Shown here one piece after another: positions 2,665 through 44,870 of a DNA stretch of 64,000 nucleotides. The notes beneath the pieces were generated by a model that had not been told where the DNA came from, did not search any database, and saw only the letters and a program-made list of their open reading frames with translations. Each line of letters starts with the position of its first letter. Position 1 is the stretch's first letter. Source of the stretch: Escherichia coli (lineage in GTDB: Bacteria > Pseudomonadota > Gammaproteobacteria > Enterobacterales > Enterobacteriaceae); NCBI RefSeq assembly GCF_003790525.1, contig NZ_CP033635.1; one strand, written 5' to 3'. Made by a program: the position numbers and the translations under genes.

Positions 2665-2892
2665 CCGCCCGCTTCATGGGTCGGTTTTGATGCAATTCCA
2701 AAAGCCGTCCAAACTCTCTTAGGCTAAATGTCCAACGAGAAAATAGTTCTTTGAATGTGAATGCATTTTAATGCAGAGTTATGCCCAGCATTTTTGTACA
2801 CTTCGATGTATCAAATGCGCTGCAAACGATCAAATATGGATGTTTTATCAAGCATCCCCCAAAAGATATTTACATCATCCCATGAGGTTAAG

Positions 2893-3966
2893 ATGGATAA
2901 CAAAATCGTAGAAATTGAGACAAATAAGCTTGATTTTGACCCTAAAAACCCACGTTTCTTTCGTCTCAATGATGCCAGTAACGCTGCAACAGTCATTGAG
3001 GAAATGTTAGATGACGAAAGTGTCCACGATCTAATGCTATCAATCGGTCAGCAAGGTTACTTTCCTGGAGAACCTTTATTGGCAGTAAAAAGCAATGGAA
3101 ACTACATCGTGGTTGAGGGAAACAGACGCTTAGCTGCTGTAAAGTTGCTCAATGGAGATCTGCTTCCTCCAAAAAGAAAACTTAAAGGTGTGCAAGAAAT
3201 CATTGATGATACTACCAATAAACCTAAGAAGCTTCCCTGCATCATTTATGAAAACCGAGAGGATGTACTGAGATATATCGGTTATCGTCATATAACTGGG
3301 GTCAAAGAATGGGACTCATTATCTAAAGCCAAATACCTTAAAGAGTTATGTGATACTTTTTATTCACATGAGCCTAAAGAGATAGTATTAAAAAATCTGG
3401 CTCGTGAGATTGGGAGTAAACCACATTATGTTGCAACACTTCTCACTGCACTGAACTTATATGAAGTCGCGCATGACCATGAGTTTTTTAATTTACCCAT
3501 GAAGGCTTCTGACGTGGAATTTTCATATATAACCACAGCTTTGGGATATTCAAAAATCACAAACTGGTTAGGTCTACAGGATAAAAAGGATTTTTTAGAC
3601 CCAAATTTAAATGAAGAAAACCTTAAGCGTTTATTCTCTTGGTTTTTTGTGCCTGACCAACAAGGTAGAACCATCATCGGTGAGTCTCGAAGAATAAAAG
3701 ATATTGCAGCAGTGGTTGAGAAACCCGAAGCAATTGAAATTCTCATGAAAAGTTCAAACTTGGATGAAGCATATCTATATACCAGCGGAGAAAGAGAAGC
3801 ATTAGATAAAGCACTAAACGCAGCTAGTGTTAAATTAAGAGTAGTTTGGGATATGCTACTTAAAGCTAAAGAATTAACATTAGAGCATGAAGAGGCTGCA
3901 TCTGAAATTTTTGAGATGTCAAAAAATATTAGAAATCAGATCAGAAGCAAAAGGGAGGATGATTGA
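2893..3966 (+). CDS. ParB/Srx-like N-terminal-domain protein (hotspot cargo gene 1); ORF open from 2761, start 2893 preferred
   Basis: Motifs LDFDPKNPRFF and IVVEGNRRLAAVKL resemble the ParB PNPxQPR and GERRxRA boxes; GAGG 5 nt upstream of ATG 2893; region looks AT-rich. Confidence 0.7.
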   Translation: MDNKIVEIETNKLDFDPKNPRFFRLNDASNAATVIEEMLDDESVHDLMLSIGQQGYFPGEPLLAVKSNGNYIVVEGNRRLAAVKLLNGDLLPPKRKLKGVQEIIDDTTNKPKKLPCIIYENREDVLRYIGYRHITGVKEWDSLSKAKYLKELCDTFYSHEPKEIVLKNLAREIGSKPHYVATLLTALNLYEVAHDHEFFNLPMKASDVEFSYITTALGYSKITNWLGLQDKKDFLDPNLNEENLKRLFSWFFVPDQQGRTIIGESRRIKDIAAVVEKPEAIEILMKSSNLDEAYLYTSGEREALDKALNAASVKLRVVWDMLLKAKELTLEHEEAASEIFEMSKNIRNQIRSKREDD

Positions 3967-4996
3967 GATTATGATTACAAATCTTGATTCAATGCCTTCT
4001 AATGAGCCTTATTTATGGGCTGATTATATTGAGATATTGGCCTTAACTAATATCGACAGGTCATTCAGTCGAGGAGACCTATATAGCACACTGCAAGCTC
4101 AACCCGAAGCAGTACTAGCTGAAACAGATGAAGCAGAAGAAGAGGGCGTTTATGATGTTGATGATGAAAATGATACGCCTGTACGCAAGAGAACAAAACG
4201 AAGTGTTAGTCGAGCATATACTGACAGAAAGTGGAGCTATGCGATAGGCTTCATACGACAACGCATTGATTTATTTGGGGATAGTTACCCTTTTACTTTA
4301 TCAGAAGACAACGATACTGTAGAGTTACGTGATATATCAGAAAAGCCACTGGAACATTTAGAAAGACTATATTTAGCTTTACTAATCTGTGCTAACATAA
4401 AATATGTCAACATAATGAGCAGAAGAGAGATAACGCGCAGTTTTGAACTAATTAGTTTACCTATTTTTGAAAGCCTAATGCCTAGCGGTAGCATAATAAA
4501 AGCATGCTGGGCTTCTGGTGGTCAAGCGGCCCCTTACACTGGAACTCTATATAATAAATTTAAGAGTATTGCTTCCGATATCCGTTGCACAGCGAACTTC
4601 AAAGAACGAGATTTCAGTCGAGGAAATAGTGGTGACGGAGGCCTTGACATAATTGCCTGGCATCCAATGGGAGATCAACGAGATGCCATCCCTATTTCTT
4701 TTGTTCAGTGTGGCTGTTCTCAAGAAGAGTGGGAAGCGAAGCAGCTTGAGGCCTCACCTGCGATGCTCTACAGTAAATTCCCCGTAGCTCACCGATGGGC
4801 AACTTATTATTTCTTACCTCAAGATCTACGATGGATAGATGGTGAGTGGGCGCATAAAAATAAGTTAGGCGATGCTATTTTTGTTGATCGCCTAAGATTA
4901 ATCAATTTAACCAGAGCATCTGATAATATTGATCACAGTCAAAATATTAGCTATCTAGATATCATCCTTGATCCTTCCAGCGCGATCGCTGCTTAA
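3959..4996 (+). CDS. Hypothetical protein, possible PD-(D/E)xK-like nuclease core in C-terminal half (hotspot cargo gene 2)
   Basis: Start ATG 3959 overlaps gene 1 stop (ATGATTGA), alternative ATG 3971; GGAGG at 3954-3958; acidic then basic tract ETDEAEEEGVYDVDDENDTPVRKRTKR; GGLDIIAW ... EEWEAK fits a D...ExK spacing (weak). Confidence 0.6.
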   Translation: MIEIMITNLDSMPSNEPYLWADYIEILALTNIDRSFSRGDLYSTLQAQPEAVLAETDEAEEEGVYDVDDENDTPVRKRTKRSVSRAYTDRKWSYAIGFIRQRIDLFGDSYPFTLSEDNDTVELRDISEKPLEHLERLYLALLICANIKYVNIMSRREITRSFELISLPIFESLMPSGSIIKACWASGGQAAPYTGTLYNKFKSIASDIRCTANFKERDFSRGNSGDGGLDIIAWHPMGDQRDAIPISFVQCGCSQEEWEAKQLEASPAMLYSKFPVAHRWATYYFLPQDLRWIDGEWAHKNKLGDAIFVDRLRLINLTRASDNIDHSQNISYLDIILDPSSAIAA

Positions 4997-5931
4997 TCCC
5001 ATAAATCTGGAAGGTTTCTAGCAACCGCCTCAAACAATGGAGGCGGTACTGCATTACCTACCACAGTATATTTCATATTAATAGAAGCCCGTTCAGTTTC
5101 TGGGAAAATTAAATCCCCAAAACCTTGTAAAATAGCAGCCTCTCGATAGCTAAACCTACGAGCTGGTGCATCCGAAGTAAATTGCCACTTATCAGGTCCC
5201 AATTTTTCTAATGTTGGACTTATTGGATGTAGAGGCATATGTCTAGGATTTGCAACAATTGTTTTAGATATCTGATCCCAATCTTGCCTACGGTTTCGCG
5301 ATAGATAATACCAATGAAAATCGGCGTCATAAAACTCGCCAACAGGCCAAACAGGCATATGCCCAATAGCATCACGAATTGTGGAATATGGTGTCAAACC
5401 ATCACCATGTGTTGGTTTTGGAAATTTGTATGTAATACCGTAGTCCTTTCGTATTCCTACGATAAAGATTCGCTTCCTATCTTGGGATACCCCATAATGG
5501 GACGCATTCAGAATTTGCGAGCTTACTGTATAACCTGCTTCTTCGAAAACTTTGAATTGATCCTTTAATAAATGCTCAAAGTTACGCCTTACCATACCAG
5601 AGACATTCTCTACAATGAATGCTTTTGGCTTAATTTTACTCAAAGCACGGGCAAACTCTAAATATAGTGTATTAATCTTTCTATCTGCCTTCCTTGCCCC
5701 ACCTTGACTAAATCCTTGGCAAGGATAGCATCCGATGAGCAACTCAGCAGAAGGGAACGACTGGAGCCCTGAGATATCGCCCAAAATGTAGTCAGTTTCA
5801 GGATGGTTTTCTAAGTAAACGTCCCTTGCGTAAGGCAAAATATCATTTGCCATAAGCACATTGAAACCTGCGTTCAAAACTCCCGCATCAGAACCACCAC
5901 ATCCAGAAAAAAGTGAAACTACAGTTGGCAT
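4993..5931 (-). CDS. DNA (cytosine-5)-methyltransferase, short HaeIII/HhaI-size type (312 aa)
   Basis: Motif I FSGCGG, motif IV PCQGFS, motif VI ENV, motif VIII QDRKRIFIVG; AGGAGG-type RBS upstream of start; stop overlaps stop of gene 2 within TTAA at 4993-4996. Confidence 0.9.
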   Translation of the reverse strand: MPTVVSLFSGCGGSDAGVLNAGFNVLMANDILPYARDVYLENHPETDYILGDISGLQSFPSAELLIGCYPCQGFSQGGARKADRKINTLYLEFARALSKIKPKAFIVENVSGMVRRNFEHLLKDQFKVFEEAGYTVSSQILNASHYGVSQDRKRIFIVGIRKDYGITYKFPKPTHGDGLTPYSTIRDAIGHMPVWPVGEFYDADFHWYYLSRNRRQDWDQISKTIVANPRHMPLHPISPTLEKLGPDKWQFTSDAPARRFSYREAAILQGFGDLIFPETERASINMKYTVVGNAVPPPLFEAVARNLPDLWD

Positions 5932-6392: not shown

Positions 6393-6832
6393 CCGTTTTG
6401 CTGTGCACGCTCCATCTGTTCATCTGAATAGTTCCATGCTCCATCCGTGGCAACCATTGCCCCGCCAGACATCCCCGTCTCTGGTTCATACATAACAGCA
6501 AGGCCGAGCTGATGCATAATTTCATGATTAATTCTGAATACCAGGCCACGCTCACTAAGTTCTTTCCAGTTCACAATCTCATATGCGCCTGTATTAAGCA
6601 GCTCAATACTTAGCAAGACATAATCTTCCAGCCAGTCTGACAGGTCAGTAACATCTGTTATCCGGGCTTCAACATTTCGCCCCGTATACACACCCTGCAC
6701 CCATTCATACAAAATCAACGTGTCCCCGCGCTCATAATTACGGTCATTTTTCCGGAACTCTGCACGTTTCTTTCCTTCCAGCACAAGGTCGAAATATTTT
6801 GCGTGCAGCTTTACCTCGTGAATTTTTGCCAT
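6380..6832 (-). CDS. ASCH (PUA-like) domain protein at the P2 orf91 position
   Basis: N-terminal MAKIHEVKLHAKYFDLVLEGKKRAEFRKNDRNYERGDTLILYEW resembles ASCH; start ATG 6832 shares a base with the gene A stop (TAATG). Confidence 0.65.
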   Translation of the reverse strand: MAKIHEVKLHAKYFDLVLEGKKRAEFRKNDRNYERGDTLILYEWVQGVYTGRNVEARITDVTDLSDWLEDYVLLSIELLNTGAYEIVNWKELSERGLVFRINHEIMHQLGLAVMYEPETGMSGGAMVATDGAWNYSDEQMERAQQNGWLG

Positions 6833-9159
6833 TATGTCCACTCCATTACTGTTGAGAATCCCGGCCACTCATCAGCGACCGGATACGTGAATTTTTTCCC
6901 GTCATAATTTACGGTCGCGCCACGCGCCAGCGCCTCAAGCTCCCATCGCTGCGGCCTGATACCGTTCTGAGCAAGGTCAACGCGGATACGGGTAATTTGC
7001 GTTCGTTCCGACCGGGTCAGTCTGGCCGATGGCGCTATTTCATGTGGTTTTAACGGGCTTCCGTTTCTCTGCTGACGATTTGGTGTTCTCAGTTCGTGTT
7101 TTAATGCACCTCTGAGCGCCCTCACGACCTCTGGCTCATTCCATTCGATAACACCGTCATCAACCAGATTAAGCACGGCTGCGGCATGTTCATAAGGTGT
7201 GGGAGCCGGTAACGAAGTATCACTGCCGGTGAGCTTTCCACAGTTATTGACAGGACTCCGAGGCGCGGCGATGCCGCTTTTTAAAGTCAAAGGCTCAACG
7301 ACCGGAACTTTCGGCACAATGCGCCAGTCCGTCGTTCTGGTGATATGAATATGACGCGCGCCGAGATGCGGCGCGTAAATACCGACCACTCTCTCGACTT
7401 CTTCCTCGTACTCGTTAACGTCACTCGACGGGCTACGGGCAACCCTGACAGTCTGACAATCGCGCGGGACATTTGCCCCACCCTGCGCGCTGATATACAA
7501 CGCAAAATCACCACTGTCTGCGGCAGCGCGAGCAGCCTCGACGCGTTCGTCAAACTCATCAGCAATACTGACGCCGCGAGGTAATTTGCGTAGTTCACGG
7601 TAAGCCCCCATTGTCGGTAGGCCAACCGTTTTAAATTGCGGAATGCGCCACGTTGACGCCCATGCGGTAACAGCCGCGGCAGTGTCTTTCAGCGGCCTGC
7701 CGGTATCGTTATCGAGCTGACCATCCAGTGCATAGCCGTCGATGTTTTTTGAAATGTATTTCGCGATATACCCCGCAGCACCGCCCCGATTAAGGTGTTT
7801 TGCCTGAAAACGGTTTCGCGCGGCTCCTCTTTCGTCGCCATCCTCTTTGAGCGCATAGCGACGCATGATTTCGATAATCTGGTTACGCTGGCGCGAATTA
7901 CAAAAAAGCATCATATGCCAGTGCGGCGTTCCGTCGTGGTGTGGCTCGACGACACGCAAACCGTAGACCTGTAAATCATTATCCTTGAATGCCGTGCGCA
8001 TCAGGCTCCAGATACGGCAGAGATAACGCTGCGCATCCTTTGGATTAAATGCCTCATCGTTCCAGCCGTGATTAAGCTGCACGGTTTTACTTTCGCCTTT
8101 TCCTACCTGACGTGTCGGGTGATACTTTGACGGCGCGGTCAGCGTGATAAACATCCCCACATCACCCTCTGCAGCGGCGTAACGCTCAATACCGGCAATG
8201 GTGTTCATCAGCTCCATCCGGCGAATTTCAGGATTAGAAATACTGCCCATCACCTTACTGATAAGGTCGATGCGCTCGCCGGTTTCCCTGTTTTCAAGGT
8301 CACACGATTTAAGAAATTCCAGATTTGCCTGGCGGCGCGCACGCACATCACGAATGGCATGTTTACTGGCATAAGGTGAACGGTCTTTATTGACCTCCCC
8401 GACAGCAATCAGTAACGCCTCATGCCAGCGCATACGCTGGCCTTTAAGCTGTCTAATCCACCACTCATCGTTAAACAGGCGGGCAATGGCAGAATATGCC
8501 TGCCTCGTGGTCATCTGCCCTTTACGGTATTTTCTCCAGTACAGCGGGGAAATATTGAAAGCACGTGCAGCGCCAGCAACATGACCATACAGGTGAGCCT
8601 GCGCCTCATCCGTAAACAGCGATTCTTTTTCGCCATGGGCATCCACCCAGGCATCGCAGAGTTCCTCATACATCATGAAAAGCTGCGATGAGATACGGGC
8701 GGCAAACTTTTTCAGCTCCTTGTCATTCATTCCCGGCAGGCGCGCATAGTGGTCACGCTCTGCCAGAAACAGCAACGACGCGTCGGTGTTCATTTCATGG
8801 CGCTGATTCACACGCTCAATGCGCGGCCATAAACGACGCTGAAAAGTGGATGTGAGGAAATAAAACCCGTGCACCGGGCTTTTATTGCGCCGGATGTAGT
8901 CATAGCGTGAAGTAAACAGCGAGCGCAAAAAGTAAGGCAGGCGGTTAATCGTGGATAAAACACCTTGCACCTGACGCATCTCATCACGTGTAAGGGGTCT
9001 TTCGCGCCCGACGGCCTCGCGTGGCGCGTTCCATGCATAAGCACCGGTAAACATCTTACCGGTGCCTGCGGCAAATGCTGACGGAGGGACAAAACGCCCG
9101 GAGGCTTTAACGGCCATATGAGCCAAAAGCCTCTGAACAACGCCTGCTGAGTTGCTCAA
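6832..9159 (-). CDS. Rolling-circle replication initiation endonuclease, P2 gpA-like (HUH superfamily)
   Basis: HUH motif PHWHMMLF and YxxxY motif GYIAKYISK; 775 aa against 761 aa for P2 A; position in early operon. Confidence 0.85.
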   Translation of the reverse strand: MSNSAGVVQRLLAHMAVKASGRFVPPSAFAAGTGKMFTGAYAWNAPREAVGRERPLTRDEMRQVQGVLSTINRLPYFLRSLFTSRYDYIRRNKSPVHGFYFLTSTFQRRLWPRIERVNQRHEMNTDASLLFLAERDHYARLPGMNDKELKKFAARISSQLFMMYEELCDAWVDAHGEKESLFTDEAQAHLYGHVAGAARAFNISPLYWRKYRKGQMTTRQAYSAIARLFNDEWWIRQLKGQRMRWHEALLIAVGEVNKDRSPYASKHAIRDVRARRQANLEFLKSCDLENRETGERIDLISKVMGSISNPEIRRMELMNTIAGIERYAAAEGDVGMFITLTAPSKYHPTRQVGKGESKTVQLNHGWNDEAFNPKDAQRYLCRIWSLMRTAFKDNDLQVYGLRVVEPHHDGTPHWHMMLFCNSRQRNQIIEIMRRYALKEDGDERGAARNRFQAKHLNRGGAAGYIAKYISKNIDGYALDGQLDNDTGRPLKDTAAAVTAWASTWRIPQFKTVGLPTMGAYRELRKLPRGVSIADEFDERVEAARAAADSGDFALYISAQGGANVPRDCQTVRVARSPSSDVNEYEEEVERVVGIYAPHLGARHIHITRTTDWRIVPKVPVVEPLTLKSGIAAPRSPVNNCGKLTGSDTSLPAPTPYEHAAAVLNLVDDGVIEWNEPEVVRALRGALKHELRTPNRQQRNGSPLKPHEIAPSARLTRSERTQITRIRVDLAQNGIRPQRWELEALARGATVNYDGKKFTYPVADEWPGFSTVMEWT

Positions 9160-10693: not shown

Positions 10694-10887
10694 TTCCAGC
10701 CCCTCCGGCTTTTCAGAAAGGTCAGAGCCTTTTTTAACGGACTCTGTTTTTTGGTGCGGATAATGATTCCCTTACGCCCCTTACCGTGGGTGATGGTGAA
10801 GTCAATCGCCCTGGGGCTTTCGTTACGCAGTAACTGAGCAATACAACGCGGTTCACTCATAATCACAACCCCATCCACAAAAGCCAT
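10690..10887 (-). CDS. Small phage protein (P2 orf78 position)
   Basis: 65-aa ORF coupled to B. Confidence 0.4.
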   Translation of the reverse strand: MAFVDGVVIMSEPRCIAQLLRNESPRAIDFTITHGKGRKGIIIRTKKQSPLKKALTFLKSRRGWK

Positions 10888-11135
10888 GCATCACGCTGTT
10901 CAACTGGTCGGTTATAAAACGCCTCTCGTACAGCGCGATTAAACTCTGGAATGAAAACCCACTTCTCACCGACACGAGCGTTCGGCTTACTTGGATCACG
11001 AAGCTCAATAACTGGCAACTTATTCTCTTTTACCATCTTGACTACAGCCGTTTCTGGCTTACCAAGTAACTCTGCAAACTTAACCGTATGTACCGCATCA
11101 ATCGGGTACTGAATCACATAGTCATTGACTTCCAT
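10863..11135 (-). CDS. Cox-like excisionase / early-promoter regulator
   Basis: 90 aa against 91 aa for P2 Cox; first gene of early operon, divergent from C-int. Confidence 0.6.
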   Translation of the reverse strand: MEVNDYVIQYPIDAVHTVKFAELLGKPETAVVKMVKENKLPVIELRDPSKPNARVGEKWVFIPEFNRAVREAFYNRPVEQRDAWLLWMGL

Positions 11136-11287: not shown

Positions 11288-11581
11288 ATGCAGACATTCG
11301 AAAAACTGAAAGCGATTAGGAAAGCAGAAGGCTTAACACAGGCGAAATTCAGCGAAATTAGCGGGATAGCTCTAGGAACAGTCAAAAATTACGAAAGTGG
11401 GCATAAAGACCCTGGTCTCAGCATCGTTATGCGAGTCACAAATACGCCTTTATTTAAAAAATATACGCTCTGGTTAATGACTGGTGATACGTCACCACAA
11501 GCTGGTCAGATCGCGCCGGCTCTCGCACACATTGGGCAAAAACCAACAGAATCAGACCACTCCGAAAAACAGACTGGTTAA
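11288..11581 (+). CDS. Immunity repressor, P2 C-like (HTH)
   Basis: 97 aa; HTH-like segment LTQAKFSEISGIALGTVKNYESG; motif QAGQIAPALAH resembles my recollection of P2 C; upstream of int on same strand. Confidence 0.7.
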   Translation: MQTFEKLKAIRKAEGLTQAKFSEISGIALGTVKNYESGHKDPGLSIVMRVTNTPLFKKYTLWLMTGDTSPQAGQIAPALAHIGQKPTESDHSEKQTG

Positions 11582-11650
11582 CACTCTATAAACATTACAT
11601 TTTCACCATTTGTTACCAAGATGGTGAATACAGCGTCAGAGGGCTTTCTT

Positions 11651-12631
11651 ATGTCAATTAAGAAGCTCGATGATGGACGCTATGAAGTGGACATTAGACC
11701 TCGCGGTCGCGACGGAAAACGCATCCGCAGGAAATTTGAAAGAAAAGCTGAGGCTGTAGCATTTGAGCGATACACAATCGCCTACGCCAGCCAGAAAGAA
11801 TGGGCAGGTCAGCGAGCAGATCGCAGAACTTTGAGTGAGTTGCTGAACATCTGGTGGAAATATCACGGGCAAAACCACGAGCATGGAACAAAAGAGTTTA
11901 ATCATCTGCTCAAAACCATCAGCGGCATAGGTGATATACCAGTGAGCCGGATGAGCAAAAGAGCTTTGATGGATTATCGTTCCATGCGACTACGTGATGG
12001 TATCAGTGCCGCAACGATAAACCGTGACATGTACCGATTATCCGGCATGTTCACAAAATTAATTCAATTGGATGAATTTTCCGGGCAACACCCAATTCAC
12101 GGACTGCCGCCACTGGCGGAGGCCAACCCTGAAATGACGTTCCTGGAAAAAGCAGAAATCGAAAAACTGTTAAATGTTTTGGATGGTGATGACTTACTTG
12201 TCGCACTTTTATGTCTGAGCACTGGAGGAAGATGGACGGAAGTTGCCACGCTAAAACCAGCACAGATTACAAATTGCAGGGTTACCTTCCTGAAAACCAA
12301 AAACGGTAAAAAGCGAACCGTGCCGATTTCTGAGGAACTGGAGAAAAAAGTTAAAGAGGAGGCCAGCGCTAAATTATTCAAAGTTGATTATGAGAAGTTT
12401 TGCGGGATTTTACGCAGAGTGAAGCCAGATATACCACCCAATCAGGCAACCCACATCCTGCGGCATACATTCGCAAGCCATTTCATGATGAATGGGGGCA
12501 ATATAATCGCACTGCAACAGATTCTGGGACATGCGAGCATTCAGCAGACGATGGCCTATGCGCACCTTGCGCCTGACTACCTGCAAAATGCCGTCGCGCT
12601 GAATCCTCTAAAAGGCGGAGTGACGTTATAA
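11651..12631 (+). CDS. Tyrosine integrase, P2 Int-like (ORF open from 11621)
   Basis: C-terminal HILRHTFASHFMMNGGNIIALQQILGHASIQQTMAYAHL tyrosine-recombinase signature; N-terminus MSIKKLDDGRYEVDIRP resembles P2 Int. Confidence 0.9.
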   Translation: MSIKKLDDGRYEVDIRPRGRDGKRIRRKFERKAEAVAFERYTIAYASQKEWAGQRADRRTLSELLNIWWKYHGQNHEHGTKEFNHLLKTISGIGDIPVSRMSKRALMDYRSMRLRDGISAATINRDMYRLSGMFTKLIQLDEFSGQHPIHGLPPLAEANPEMTFLEKAEIEKLLNVLDGDDLLVALLCLSTGGRWTEVATLKPAQITNCRVTFLKTKNGKKRTVPISEELEKKVKEEASAKLFKVDYEKFCGILRRVKPDIPPNQATHILRHTFASHFMMNGGNIIALQQILGHASIQQTMAYAHLAPDYLQNAVALNPLKGGVTL

Positions 12632-12749
12632 ATTTCCCTTCTGAGTGTCCACATAGTGTCCACACTCTCAGAACTTTGTAGCCCTTCCAGTCCCTTATAG
12701 GTTTTCTTAAGTTACTGTTTTCTTACGGAAACCGATGTAAGTGATTGAT

Positions 12750-12777
12750 AAAAAAAACCCCCACATCATGTGGGGGA
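12750..12777 (-). terminator. Rho-independent terminator of cpxP
   Basis: cccccaca-tcatg-tggggg hairpin with A-run on plus strand (T-run on minus) just 3' of cpxP. Confidence 0.5.
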
Positions 12778-12816
12778 AGACAGGGATGGTGTCTATGGCA
12801 AGGAAAACAGGGTTTA

Positions 12817-13317
12817 CTACTGGGAACGTGAGTTGCTACTACTCAATAGCTTCAACGATGAACTTTTTTGCCATTGCGTCACGTCGCGCAACTGCTCCAT
12901 TCGTTGTTGATGTTTCTCGTTTAAAACCGCTTGCTGCTCCGGCGTTAACAGGCGATACATTTGGTTGCGGACTTTTGCCATCTCAACCTGACGAGCAATT
13001 TGCTCATTCGCCATTTTTTCTGCCTGTGCGCGCACAGCGTTTTCATCAAAATTTTCTGCGGTGACAAGGCGATGCATTGTCTCCAGTTCGCTAACATTAA
13101 CAGGAGGCTGTTCGTGCCGGGCCTGTTGCATAAGATCTCGCATCTGCTGACGCTGATGTTCGGTTAAACTTATGCCGTCGAACATATGGCTCTGCGTACT
13201 GCGCTGCGTAAGTTCTTCACCCGGATGCCAGTTATCGCCTGAACCGACTTCAGCAGCGTGGCTTAATGAACTGACTGCCAGCGTTGAGGCCATGACGGCA
13301 GCGGTAACTATGCGCAT
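12817..13317 (-). CDS. cpxP: Periplasmic Cpx-pathway inhibitor/adaptor CpxP
   Basis: Protein [21 protein letters not shown] ... matches CpxP; divergent from cpxRA. Confidence 0.9.
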
Positions 13318-13396
13318 CATTTGCTCCCAAAATCTTTCTGTCGCGATTCAACGATAGAGAGTTTACGATTCAGGCTGCAAACATGCGTCAGGGGGT

Positions 13397-13411
13397 GTAA
13401 AACAACGTAAA
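13397..13411. promoter_or_regulatory. CpxR-P binding box (GTAAA-N5-GTAAA) in cpxP/cpxR divergent promoter region
   Basis: Exact gtaaa-acaac-gtaaa in the intergenic region. Confidence 0.55.
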
Positions 13412-13466
13412 GTCATGGATTAGCGACGTCTGATGACGTAATTTCTGCCTCGGAGGTATTTAAACA

Positions 13467-14165
13467 ATGAATAAAATCCTGTTAGTTGATGATGACCGAG
13501 AGCTGACTTCCCTATTAAAGGAGCTGCTCGAGATGGAAGGCTTCAACGTGATTGTTGCCCACGATGGGGAACAGGCGCTTGATCTTCTGGACGACAGCAT
13601 TGATTTACTTTTGCTTGATGTAATGATGCCGAAGAAAAATGGTATCGACACATTAAAAGCACTTCGCCAGACACACCAGACGCCTGTCATTATGTTGACG
13701 GCGCGCGGCAGTGAACTTGATCGCGTTCTCGGCCTTGAGCTGGGCGCAGATGACTATCTCCCGAAACCGTTTAATGATCGTGAGCTGGTGGCACGTATTC
13801 GCGCGATCCTGCGCCGTTCGCACTGGAGCGAGCAACAGCAAAACAACGACAACGGTTCACCGACACTGGAAGTTGATGCCTTAGTGCTGAATCCAGGCCG
13901 TCAGGAAGCCAGCTTCGACGGGCAAACGCTGGAGTTAACCGGCACTGAGTTTACCCTGCTCTATTTGCTGGCACAGCATCTGGGTCAGGTGGTTTCCCGT
14001 GAGCATTTAAGCCAGGAAGTGCTGGGCAAACGCCTGACGCCTTTCGACCGCGCTATTGATATGCACATTTCCAACCTGCGTCGTAAACTGCCGGATCGTA
14101 AAGATGGTCATCCGTGGTTTAAAACCTTGCGTGGTCGCGGCTATCTGATGGTTTCTGCTTCATGA
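13467..14165 (+). CDS. cpxR: Response regulator CpxR (OmpR family)
   Basis: 232 aa, receiver plus winged-helix; MNKILLVDDDRELT ... Confidence 0.95.
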   Translation: MNKILLVDDDRELTSLLKELLEMEGFNVIVAHDGEQALDLLDDSIDLLLLDVMMPKKNGIDTLKALRQTHQTPVIMLTARGSELDRVLGLELGADDYLPKPFNDRELVARIRAILRRSHWSEQQQNNDNGSPTLEVDALVLNPGRQEASFDGQTLELTGTEFTLLYLLAQHLGQVVSREHLSQEVLGKRLTPFDRAIDMHISNLRRKLPDRKDGHPWFKTLRGRGYLMVSAS

Positions 14166-15535
14166 TAGGCAGCTTAACCGCGCGCATCTTCGCCATCTTC
14201 TGGCTGACGCTGGCGCTGGTGTTGATGTTGGTTTTGATGTTACCCAAGCTCGATTCACGCCAGATGACCGAGCTTCTGGATAGCGAACAGCGTCAGGGTC
14301 TGATGATTGAGCAGCATGTCGAAGCGGAGCTGGCGAACGATCCGCCCAACGATTTAATGTGGTGGCGGCGTCTGTTCCGGGCGATTGATAAGTGGGCACC
14401 GCCAGGACAGCGTTTGTTATTGGTGACCACCGAAGGCCGCGTGATCGGCGCTGAACGCAGCGAAATGCAGATCATTCGTAACTTTATTGGTCAGGCCGAT
14501 AACGCCGATCATCCGCAGAAGAAAAAGTATGGCCGCGTGGAACTGGTCGGTCCGTTCTCCGTGCGTGATGGCGAAGATAATTACCAACTTTATCTGATTC
14601 GTCCGGCCAGCAGTTCTCAATCCGATTTCATTAACTTACTGTTTGACCGCCCGCTATTACTGCTGATTGTCACCATGTTGGTCAGTACGCCGCTGCTGTT
14701 GTGGTTGGCCTGGAGTCTGGCAAAACCGGCGCGTAAGCTGAAAAACGCTGCCGATGAAGTTGCCCAGGGAAACTTACGCCAGCACCCGGAACTTGAAGCG
14801 GGGCCACAGGAATTCCTTGCCGCTGGTGCCAGTTTTAACCAGATGGTCACCGCGCTGGAGCGCATGATGACCTCTCAGCAGCGTCTGCTTTCTGATATCT
14901 CTCACGAGCTGCGCACCCCGCTGACGCGTCTGCAACTGGGTACGGCGTTACTGCGCCGTCGTAGCGGTGAAAGCAAAGAACTGGAGCGTATTGAAACCGA
15001 AGCGCAACGTCTGGACAGCATGATTAACGACCTGTTGGTGATGTCACGTAATCAGCAGAAAAACGCACTGGTTAGCGAGACCATCAAAGCCAATCAGTTG
15101 TGGAGTGAAGTGCTGGATAACGCGGCGTTCGAAGCCGAGCAAATGGGCAAGTCGTTGACAGTTAACTTCCCGCCTGGGCCGTGGCCGCTGTACGGCAATC
15201 CGAACGCCCTGGAAAGTGCGCTGGAAAACATTGTTCGTAATGCCCTGCGTTATTCCCATACGAAGATTGAAGTGGGCTTTGCGGTAGATAAAGACGGTAT
15301 CACCATTACGGTGGACGACGATGGTCCTGGTGTTAGCCCGGAAGATCGCGAACAGATTTTCCGTCCGTTCTATCGTACCGATGAAGCACGCGATCGTGAA
15401 TCTGGCGGTACAGGTTTGGGGCTGGCGATTGTTGAAACCGCCATCCAGCAGCACCGTGGCTGGGTTAAAGCGGAAGACAGTCCGCTTGGCGGTTTACGGC
15501 TGGTGATTTGGTTGCCGCTGTATAAGCGGAGTTAA
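14162..15535 (+). CDS. cpxA: Sensor histidine kinase CpxA
   Basis: 457 aa, H-box SHELRTPLTR, overlapping start with cpxR. Confidence 0.95.
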   Translation: MIGSLTARIFAIFWLTLALVLMLVLMLPKLDSRQMTELLDSEQRQGLMIEQHVEAELANDPPNDLMWWRRLFRAIDKWAPPGQRLLLVTTEGRVIGAERSEMQIIRNFIGQADNADHPQKKKYGRVELVGPFSVRDGEDNYQLYLIRPASSSQSDFINLLFDRPLLLLIVTMLVSTPLLLWLAWSLAKPARKLKNAADEVAQGNLRQHPELEAGPQEFLAAGASFNQMVTALERMMTSQQRLLSDISHELRTPLTRLQLGTALLRRRSGESKELERIETEAQRLDSMINDLLVMSRNQQKNALVSETIKANQLWSEVLDNAAFEAEQMGKSLTVNFPPGPWPLYGNPNALESALENIVRNALRYSHTKIEVGFAVDKDGITITVDDDGPGVSPEDREQIFRPFYRTDEARDRESGGTGLGLAIVETAIQQHRGWVKAEDSPLGGLRLVIWLPLYKRS

Positions 15536-15540
15536 ACTCC

Positions 15541-15640
15541 GCATTGTAGGCAGGATAAGGCGTTTACGCCGCATCCGGCATTTGAGCAGGATGCCTGATG
15601 CGACGCTGATAGCGTCTTATCAGGCCTACACTCCGGGGGT
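15541..15640. repeat. REP/BIME palindromic elements
   Basis: gcctgatgcgacgctg ... cgtcttatcaggcctac type REP units between cpxA and yiiM. Confidence 0.6.
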
Positions 15641-39060: not shown

Positions 39061-42000
39061 ATGCAGGTCAGCAGAAGGCAGTTCTTTAAGATCTGCGCTG
39101 GCGGTATGGCAGGCACCACGGCAGCGGCACTGGGTTTTGCACCCAGCGTAGCACTCGCGGAAACCCGGCAGTATAAACTGCTGCGCACCCGCGAAACCCG
39201 TAATACCTGCACCTATTGTTCCGTAGGCTGTGGGCTGTTGATGTACAGCCTCGGTGACGGAGCAAAAAACGCCAAAGCATCTATCTTCCATATCGAAGGT
39301 GACCCGGATCACCCGGTCAACCGCGGAGCACTTTGTCCGAAAGGCGCTGGCCTGGTGGATTTCATCCACTCCGAAAGCCGCCTGAAGTTTCCGGAATACC
39401 GTGCGCCAGGTTCTGATAAATGGCAACAAATCAGTTGGGAAGAGGCGTTTGATCGCATCGCCAAACTGATGAAAGAAGACCGCGATGCGAACTACATTGC
39501 GCAAAACGCCGAAGGCGTGACTGTTAACCGCTGGCTCTCCACCGGGATGCTGTGTGCTTCCGCGTCGAGCAACGAAACCGGCTATTTAACACAAAAATTC
39601 TCCCGCGCGCTGGGTATGCTCGCGGTCGACAACCAGGCGCGTGTCTGACACGGACCAACGGTAGCAAGTCTTGCTCCAACATTTGGTCGCGGTGCGATGA
39701 CCAACCACTGGGTCGACATCAAGAATGCCAACCTCGTCGTGGTGATGGGCGGTAACGCCGCTGAAGCTCACCCGGTCGGGTTCCGCTGGGCGATGGAAGC
39801 CAAAATTCACAACGGCGCGAAGCTGATTGTGATCGATCCTCGCTTTACACGTACGGCGGCGGTGGCTGACTACTATGCCCCTATTCGTTCCGGGACTGAC
39901 ATTGCTTTCCTGTCAGGCGTATTGCTGTACCTGCTGAACAATGAAAAATTCAACCGCGAATACACCGAAGCCTATACCAACGCCAGCCTGATCGTGCGTG
40001 AGGATTACGGCTTTGAAGATGGCCTGTTCACCGGCTACGACGCGGAAAAACGCAAGTACGATAAATCCAGCTGGACCTACGAGCTGGACGAAAACGGCTT
40101 CGCCAAACGCGATACCACGCTGCAACATCCGCGCTGCGTGTGGAACTTGCTGAAACAGCACGTTTCCCGTTATACGCCAGATGTGGTTGAAAACATCTGT
40201 GGTACGCCGAAAGACGCGTTCCTGAAAGTCTGCGAATACATCGCAGAGACCAGTGCTCACGATAAAACTGCCTCGTTCCTTTACGCGCTCGGCTGGACGC
40301 AACACTCCATTGGTGCGCAAAACATTCGTACGATGGCGATGATCCAGCTGCTGCTCGGCAACATGGGGATGGCAGGCGGCGGCGTTAACGCCCTGCGCGG
40401 TCACTCCAATATTCAGGGGCTGACCGACCTGGGGCTGCTGTCGCAGAGTCTGCCAGGTTACATGACGTTGCCAAGCGAGAAGCAGACCGATCTGCAAACT
40501 TACCTTACCGCCAACACGCCGAAACCACTGCTGGAAGGCCAGGTTAACTACTGGGGCAATTACCCGAAATTCTTCGTCTCCATGATGAAGGCCTTCTTTG
40601 GTGATAAAGCGACGGCGGAAAATAACTGGGGCTTTGACTGGTTGCCGAAGTGGGATAAAGGCTACGACGTCCTGCAATACTTCGAGATGATGAAAGAGGG
40701 CAAGGTCAATGGCTATATCTGCCAGGGCTTTAACCCTGTTGCCTCATTCCCGAACAAAAACAAAGTGATCGGCTGTCTGTCGAAACTGAAGTTCCTCGTG
40801 ACCATCGACCCGCTGAACACTGAAACCTCTAACTTCTGGCAGAACCACGGTGAACTGAACGAAGTTGACTCGTCGAAGATCCAGACCGAAGTGTTCCGTC
40901 TGCCATCGACCTGCTTCGCGGAAGAGAACGGTTCAATCGTCAACTCTGGCCGCTGGTTGCAGTGGCACTGGAAAGGTGCGGACGCCCCGGGGATTGCGCT
41001 GACTGACGGCGAGATCCTCTCCGGTATCTTCCTGCGCTTGCGCAAGATGTATGCCGAACAGGGTGGCGCGAACCCGGACCAGGTGCTGAACATGACCTGG
41101 AACTACGCCATTCCGCATGAGCCATCTTCAGAAGAAGTGGCGATGGAGAGTAACGGTAAGGCGCTGGCCGATATTACCGATCCGGCAACCGGTGCGGTTA
41201 TCGTCAAGAAAGGCCAACAACTTAGCTCGTTCGCCCAACTGCGCGATGACGGTACAACCTCCTGTGGCTGCTGGATTTTCGCCGGTAGCTGGACGCCGGA
41301 AGGCAACCAGATGGCGCGTCGTGATAACGCCGATCCGTCTGGCCTCGGTAACACGCTGGGCTGGGCATGGGCATGGCCGCTTAACCGCCGCATTCTGTAT
41401 AACCGCGCCTCCGCAGATCCGCAGGGTAACCCATGGGATCCGAAGCGTCAGTTGCTGAAATGGGACGGCACTAAGTGGACCGGCTGGGATATTCCGGATT
41501 ACAGCGCAGCGCCTCCGGGCAGTGGCGTCGGGCCGTTTATCATGCAGCAGGAAGGCATGGGGCGTCTGTTTGCCCTCGATAAGATGGCGGAAGGTCCGTT
41601 CCCGGAACACTACGAGCCGTTTGAAACGCCGCTGGGAACTAACCCGCTGCATCCAAACGTTATCTCGAACCCGGCTGCGCGAATCTTTAAAGACGACGCC
41701 GAAGCATTGGGTAAAGCCGATAAGTTCCCGTATGTCGGAACCACCTATCGTCTGACCGAGCACTTCCACTACTGGACCAAACACGCGCTGTTGAACGCGA
41801 TTTTGCAACCAGAGCAGTTTGTGGAAATCGGGGAGTCGCTGGCGAATAAACTTGGCATTGCCCAGGGCGATACTGTGAAAGTCTCCTCCAACCGTGGCTA
41901 TATCAAAGCCAAAGCGGTAGTGACCAAACGTATTCGCACGCTGAAAGCAAACGGCAAAGATATCGATACCATCGGTATTCCGATTCACTGGGGCTATGAA

Positions 42001-44759: not shown

Positions 44760-44870
44760 ATGATTGCCTGATGCGCTGCGCTTATCAGGCCTACCAATAA
44801 ACTTCAATATATTGAATTTGCATGACTTTGTAGGCCGGATAAGGCGTTCACGCCGCATCCAGCATGAACA
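44760..44870. repeat. BIME: two inverted REP units
   Basis: gcctgatgcgctgcgcttatcaggcctac and gtaggccggataaggcgttcacgccgcatcc. Confidence 0.6.

Follow-up and report, generated by a model that had tools for sequence, protein, structure and literature searches.

A conserved CpxR box in the cpxP-cpxRA control region of an Escherichia coli strain with a WPhi-type prophage at cpxQ

PhoB pho-box promoters such as pstS carry tandem direct repeats spaced by about one helical turn, which the regulator binds head-to-tail over the -35 region of promoters that have no -35 element of their own. The cpxRA operon is known to be positively autoregulated. The consensus site of CpxR is 5'-GTAAA(N5)GTAAA-3' (De Wulf 2002), and by the criterion of Price & Raivio a CpxR box should be no more than about 100 bp away from the start site of a promoter under Cpx control, both as cited in PMC8831704. 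Table S1 of PMC9600279 lists 41 known CpxR sites and enters, for the cpxP-cpxR region, the 15-mer GTAAAACAACGTAAA as cpxR/cpxP1 and GCAAACATGCGTCAG as cpxR/cpxP2. In E. coli, cpxP is up 60-fold upon NlpE overproduction, with a value of 0.03 in a cpxR mutant (Table 1 of PMC9600279). It is the most strongly induced Cpx promoter, its native start site is contained in 44 bp of 5' cpxP sequence, and the cpxP 3' UTR yields CpxQ (PMC4817254). CpxP in turn inhibits CpxA, and cpxRA is positively regulated by RpoS (PMC6737893).

The closest experimental counterpart is the divergent cpxR-cpxP promoter of Yersinia pseudotuberculosis, where CpxR~P protects gtcagggcatgtaaagctga from DNase I, where shuffling of the GTAAA(N)5GTAAA site reduces or abolishes CpxR~P binding, and where a strain with the shuffled site shows poor cpxR expression (PMC3158067). 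On the phage side, the attachment site of WPhi has been placed at K-12 coordinate 4104392 (PMC3448106), and a survey of P2-like insertion sites, which include rybB, cyaR, and ssrA, gives it as "cpxP-fieF: Wphi1 (P2)" (PMC3032704).

The locus described here lies in a 64-kb window, meaning the whole stretch of DNA that was analyzed, and comprises the following Cpx genes and CpxR boxes:

12750 to 12807, minus strand: cpxQ, 58-nt sRNA from the cpxP 3' UTR (K-12 annotation b4716, placed by alignment)
12817 to 13320, minus strand: cpxP, periplasmic inhibitor/chaperone of the Cpx system (NCBIfam score 215.3 bits, cut-off 160)
13377 to 13391, plus strand: CpxR box 2, GCAAA-CATGC-GTCAG (GCAAACATGCGTCAG), degenerate, on the cpxP side, 20 bp start-to-start from box 1
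13397 to 13411, plus strand: CpxR box 1, GTAAA-ACAAC-GTAAA (GTAAAACAACGTAAA), perfect consensus match, oriented towards cpxR
13467 to 14165, plus strand: cpxR, OmpR/PhoB-family response regulator that binds the boxes (NF008199, 508.6 bits, cut-off 341)
14162 to 15535, plus strand: cpxA, sensor histidine kinase (NF007007, 824.7 bits, cut-off 486)

The gene names cpxP, cpxR, and cpxA given in the original prediction hold, as the three proteins each score above their NCBIfam equivalog cut-off and have the same amino-acid sequences as CpxP, CpxR, and CpxA of K-12 MG1655. The cognate regulator and kinase of the box are therefore encoded here and intact. The coordinate 13320 for cpxP comes from the first of two adjacent ATGs while RefSeq takes the second (13317), which leaves the finding unaffected.

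Box 1 reads GTAAA (13397-13401), ACAAC (13402-13406), and GTAAA (13407-13411) on the plus strand and sits in the 146-bp cpxP-cpxR intergenic region (13321-13466), at a distance of 77 nt to the ATG of cpxP and 70 nt to that of cpxR. If the cpxP start is placed according to PMC4817254 (at most 44 bp from the ATG), then the box lies within about 80 bp of it. A pattern search on both strands found the exact GTAAA-N5-GTAAA only once in the 64-kb window, and this match is box 1 at 13397-13411, exactly where the original prediction had put it. By comparison, 100 dinucleotide-preserving shuffles of the window gave an expectation of 0.04 matches, with any match at all in 4 of them, and scaling this expectation by length yields p ~1e-4 for a chance exact match within the 146-bp intergenic region. 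Boxes with one mismatch are at chance level (4 found in the window, 3.7 expected), so that the exact box alone stands out. Other one-mismatch CpxR boxes in the window lie at 12399, 21473, and 29681, again with a frequency as by chance. The phrase "exact consensus match" is partly circular because the site itself belongs to the known sites behind CpxR motif models, and it is the conservation across species that provides evidence independent of this circularity.

The original prediction had named the K-12 alignment as its check, with an absent box as refutation. Aligned to K-12 MG1655 (NC_000913.3), all 146 bases of the intergenic region are identical, box 1 included. The K-12 sites cpxR/cpxP1 and cpxR/cpxP2 thus have the same control region and the same CpxR, CpxA, and CpxP proteins as found here. 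Downstream, a prophage adjoins the cpxQ 3' end in this strain, and the cpxQ terminator loop has A where K-12 has C. Being identical to the laboratory strain, the site is an ordinary one. Complete E. coli genomes match the region with at least 99% identity in 5425 of 5426 cases (5423 covering at least 80% of it), and this near-identity makes variation within the species uninformative.

A notable exception, strain 23AR0151 (NZ_CP195448.1), has an IS903B inserted inside box 2 with a 9-bp target duplication, GCTGCAAAC, that corresponds to 13374-13382 of the window. This insertion separates the cpxP core promoter from three of the four half-sites described below by about 1 kb, making this sputum isolate a natural candidate for a cpxP/cpxQ promoter-down mutant.

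A scan for CpxR relatives with one genome per species provided 14 loci with 57-99% CpxR identity (E. albertii, Citrobacter, 3 Enterobacter, Superficieibacter, Klebsiella, Acerihabitans, 3 Vibrio, 2 Shewanella, and Rodentibacter). The perfect GTAAA-N5-GTAAA is found upstream of cpxR in 13 of them, every time pointing to cpxR, i.e., in the 7 Enterobacteriaceae, Acerihabitans, the 3 Vibrio, and the 2 Shewanella. The Rodentibacter locus has no box, and no cpxP homologue was detected there. Divergent cpxP homologues were detected in 12 of the 14 loci; the second locus without a detectable one, that of Vibrio mexicanus, does carry the box. All ten pentamer positions are invariant in the 13 loci, which span three bacterial orders, while 7 to 8 different spacers occur between them (including ACAAC, GCTAC, GAATC, TAATC, GATAC, AGACT, and TCAGT). 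Invariant pentamers around a changing spacer are the signature of a repeat that is contacted by a protein. By group, the spacers and the distances from box 1 to the two start codons are as follows:

Enterobacteriaceae (7 loci): spacer ACAAC; 70 nt to the cpxR ATG; 77-79 nt to the cpxP ATG (3 loci with an in-frame ATG)
Acerihabitans: spacer GCTAC; 68 nt to the cpxR ATG; 82 nt to the cpxP ATG
Vibrio (3 loci): spacers GAATC, TAATC, and GATAC; 90-96 nt to the cpxR ATG; 95-99 nt to the cpxP ATG (2 loci)
Shewanella (2 loci): spacers AGACT and TCAGT; 176-233 nt to the cpxR ATG; 105-124 nt to the cpxP ATG

Across the three orders, box 1 thus lies 77-124 nt from the cpxP start codon, compared to 68-233 nt from that of cpxR. 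The better conservation of the former distance suggests that the geometric constraint is with cpxP.

Together with box 2, which the original prediction did not mention (nor the sRNA gene cpxQ), box 1 forms a series of four half-sites that start at 13377, 13387, 13397, and 13407, i.e., in a 10-bp phase of one helical turn each and all in the same orientation. In an alignment of nine Enterobacterales, both pentamers of box 2 are invariant as well, and near-invariance extends furthest in a block that begins with GCTGCAAAC, spans the two boxes, and ends with GTCATGGAT. The offset between the two boxes is 20 bp in Enterobacterales (GCAAA-N5-GTCAG as box 2) and 21 bp in Vibrio, where the partner box reads GTAAA-N5-GTAT[AG]. 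This layout, in which the weak box is the one nearer to cpxP, the perfect box the one nearer to cpxR, and cpxR the gene to which the two point, is conserved from Escherichia to Vibrio. It probably extends to Shewanella, where weaker GTCAA and GTAAG pentamers are found at a 21-bp offset.

The sequence protected in Yersinia, gtcagggcatgtaaagctga, aligns with GTCAGGGGGTGTAAAACAAC of E. coli. The Yersinia pseudotuberculosis site shares the orthologous position, the orientation, and the GTAAA-N5-GTAAA box with the one described here, but its spacer and flanking bases are unlike those of E. coli, and both the footprint and the shuffle mutant are Yersinia's.

For the divergent promoters themselves, two sets of elements can be proposed:

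13360 to 13365, minus strand: putative -10 hexamer of cpxP, TAAACT, from sequence and conservation (TAGACT in other genera)
13416 to 13444, plus strand: putative cpxRA core promoter with a -35-like TGGATT (13416-13421), a variable spacer of 17 bp, and a -10-like TAATTT (13439-13444)

On the cpxP side, the TAAACT candidate keeps T1, A2, and T6 in other genera, while the alternative TATCGT loses A2. A -10 element at this position would imply a cpxP start site near 13353, in agreement with the 44 bp reported in PMC4817254, and with a 17-bp spacer the -35 position of cpxP would fall inside box 2. The half-sites would then cover about -24 to -58 of cpxP, with box 1 centered near -51. On the cpxR side, two blocks conserved in the alignment of nine Enterobacterales, GTCATGGATTAG and GATGACGTAATTTC, flank the variable spacer, which suggests that TGGATT/TAATTT is a weak cpxRA promoter with its -35 element abutting box 1. 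This assignment is the weakest step of the model and may be wrong because it implies a start at about 13451, with the unusual consequence that the mRNA would begin almost directly with the cpxR Shine-Dalgarno sequence (13452-13456). A sigma-70 consensus scan of 12500-13700 revealed no strong promoter; this is uninformative since activator-dependent promoters are not expected to have a strong consensus.

We consider it very likely that four half-sites make up a CpxR~P array (13377-13411), with box 1 as its high-affinity half, common to the back-to-back promoters of cpxP (leftward) and cpxRA (rightward); none of the observations speaks against it. Our analysis supports this reading with the sequence of the site, which is unique in the window and the same as in K-12, and with the deeply conserved half-sites, their phasing, and their orientation. 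The binding of CpxR~P, the dependence of induction on CpxR, and the feedback by CpxP are drawn from the literature. The published cpxR/cpxP1 site and the cross-species conservation likewise support the autoregulated Cpx circuit that had been read from the box initially. From the literature and its conservation, box 1 itself can be taken as a real, functional, and already known CpxR site.

The promoter hexamers, start sites, and order of occupancy that we infer would fit the following course of events. Upon envelope stress, CpxA would phosphorylate CpxR, and two dimers of CpxR~P, a winged-helix protein of the OmpR/PhoB type, would bind head-to-tail to the direct GTAAA repeats at one helical turn from each other. 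The perfect box 1 is presumably occupied first, and the degenerate box 2 would then be filled alongside. Seen from cpxP, box 2 would stand in place of a -35 element with box 1 centered near -51, so that this promoter, lacking a usable -35 of its own, would be inactive unless CpxR~P is present to induce it strongly; CpxQ would also arise from its transcript. Seen from cpxR, box 1 abuts a weak -35 element, which would result in a moderate positive autoregulation of cpxRA, and CpxP would close the loop by negative feedback on CpxA. The arrangement of repeats over the -35 region resembles the PhoB pho-box promoters (pstS), and CpxR scores as a relative of PhoB and OmpR. Unlike at those promoters, the pentamer is GTAAA, the array would serve two divergent promoters, and the start-site geometry is one that we infer.

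The most serious competitor to a shared array is the possibility that these half-sites are essentially an activator site of cpxP and add little to the expression of cpxRA, for which RpoS or other inputs would matter more, the sharing being nominal. The spacing data are what this explanation would lead one to expect, given that box 1 keeps its distance to cpxP well (77-82 nt in Enterobacterales, 95-99 nt in Vibrio, 105-124 nt in Shewanella) and drifts relative to the cpxR ATG (from 68-70 to 176-233 nt), and that the weaker box lies on the cpxP side in every case. The positive regulation of cpxRA by RpoS (PMC6737893) points in the same direction. Indeed, the poor conservation of the box 1-cpxR spacing outside Enterobacterales weakens the notion that the box would serve cpxRA with a fixed geometry in every species. 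However, shuffling of the orthologous Yersinia site resulted in poor cpxR expression (PMC3158067), and in Enterobacterales the distance between the box and the cpxR ATG is fixed (68-70 nt), with a conserved -35-like block beside the box. Overall, we regard an array that essentially serves cpxP as improbable.

A role of the box as an operator at which bound CpxR~P represses cpxRA, i.e., negative autoregulation, is considerably less plausible still. It would draw on a -10-like TAAAGT (13408-13413) that overlaps the second pentamer and that CpxR would occlude if this were the real -10 element of cpxR. Yet positive autoregulation of cpxRA is established, the promoter-like conserved blocks lie downstream of the box, and the shuffle mutant of Yersinia showed lowered and not raised cpxR expression (PMC3158067). 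That the box is merely a chance AT-rich 10-mer in intergenic DNA without function can be dismissed: 4 of 100 window shuffles did contain an exact match and one-mismatch matches are as frequent as by chance, but the box falls within the single 146-bp stretch that would be predicted to hold it, has been published as a bound site (PMC3158067, PMC9600279), and shows the invariant pentamers with changing spacer across three bacterial orders that refute a chance occurrence.

For annotation, the analysis confirms that the Cpx envelope-stress circuit of this strain is intact and identical to that of K-12, with the control region, cpxP, and cpxQ undisturbed by the neighboring prophage. Published work already covers both boxes, the consensus, the autoregulatory loop, and the attachment site of the phage, and there is nothing new here on Cpx regulation. 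Of possible interest to specialists are the conserved two-box layout, the spacing constraint on the cpxP side, and the location of the WPhi core inside cpxQ.

The neighboring prophage is P2-like, with the following features in the window:

1443 to 2477: portal gene
2761 to 5931: cargo genes between gene A and the portal gene
6832 to 9159: replication gene A
10863 to 11135: cox
11288 to 11581: C repressor gene
11621 to 12631, plus strand: tyrosine integrase gene of the WPhi/fiAA91-ss type, transcribed towards cpxQ
12747 to 12793, unstranded: attachment core of a WPhi-type P2-like prophage, attR copy, 47 bp (four-way comparison of attP, attB, attL, and attR)

These genes follow the order known from P2, in which the integrase gene adjoins the core and is followed by C, cox, and A. 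The prophage runs past the left end of the window, where a terminase ORF is cut (1-118), so that attL lies outside. The integrase gene shows 99.9-100% nucleotide identity to the best phage records, fiAA91-ss included. The edges of the core are defined by WPhi, which is identical to the window up to 12793, and by K-12, which matches from 12747 rightwards. The 47-bp core is identical in the attP of fiAA91-ss, attL and attR of WCHEC020031, the attR of the window, and in E. coli O157 and E. albertii without the prophage. When attP, attB, attL, and attR are compared, the arms change over at the edges of the core. The same prophage junction is present in 790 of the 5426 complete E. coli genomes (about 15%).

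Because cpxQ maps to 12750-12807, the core covers the last 44 nt of this gene, terminator included, and integration restores an intact cpxQ. The original prediction had placed the prophage on the other side of cpxP beyond its terminator. This is correct from the host's viewpoint, given that non-K-12 DNA begins 3 bp past the T-tract of cpxP/cpxQ, with the refinement that the core includes the terminator and most of cpxQ. WPhi itself has the same host site, a 47-bp core identical to that of the prophage described here, and an identical integrase-proximal arm (100%), but the prophage in our window has its own cargo genes (2761-5931). Published descriptions of the WPhi site predate cpxQ (before 2016) and call it intergenic, whereas the core makes up 44 of the 58 nt of cpxQ. 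A WPhi core inside cpxQ looks like another instance of P2-like phages integrating at sRNA genes. In Enterobacter sp. Bisph1 (at about 770-790), the cpxQ core is preceded on its left by TAAATGATTGAT, which is similar to the phage arm, TAAGTGATTGAT, and not to the host flank; this suggests that a WPhi-like prophage may occupy the same site in that strain.

For cpxQ, the predicted folding energy is -17.4 kcal/mol (z -2.6), and its terminator consists of a stem (12758-12776) and a T-tract (12750-12757). Compared to K-12, cpxQ is identical at 57 of 58 nt, and the single difference is at 12767 in the terminator loop, where the RNA has C in K-12 and A in this strain. The phage core as a donor of this allele was considered and rejected, as the window's allele is carried by prophage-free O157:H7 and 23AR0151, by E. 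albertii, and by Citrobacter and Enterobacter. It is K-12 that is the variant at this position, since prophage-free strains and other genera share the allele of the window.

In P2-type phages, the C-int operon is expressed in the lysogenic state. A terminator scan found no plus-strand terminator-like site from the end of int (12631) up to the coding sequence of cpxP, and the plus-strand hairpin with T-tract that follows the core in attP goes to attL upon integration. With no plus-strand terminator left after integration, it is conceivable, if rather unlikely, that C-int transcription in the lysogen reads through the core and runs antisense into cpxQ and cpxP. Such read-through, if it occurs, could dampen or retune the CpxQ and CpxP output of the CpxR-driven promoter. 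At the other end of the prophage, it is unlikely that the attL core provides the ogr transcript with a CpxQ-like end, as ogr and the core are set apart, in both attP and attL, by another hairpin that has a T-rich tail.

The cargo genes between gene A and the portal gene encode a 401-aa protein whose N-terminal part matches PD-Lambda-5_A defense models (E 3e-24), a C5 cytosine methyltransferase, and a 369-aa protein without a family match. This cargo is probably a defense or restriction-modification-like module in a variable hotspot of P2.

Searches with Rfam returned no family for cpxQ on its own strand at the gathering threshold. A sub-threshold match to Hrs1 (RF02628) lies opposite cpxQ on the plus strand at 12750-12822 (44.5 bits compared to a gathering score of 56.4; E 3e-7). 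Matches at the gathering score are naRNA4 just downstream of cpxA (15549-15626), a SECIS_3 selenocysteine insertion element (39643-39701), and the ES036 sRNA (44787-44829).
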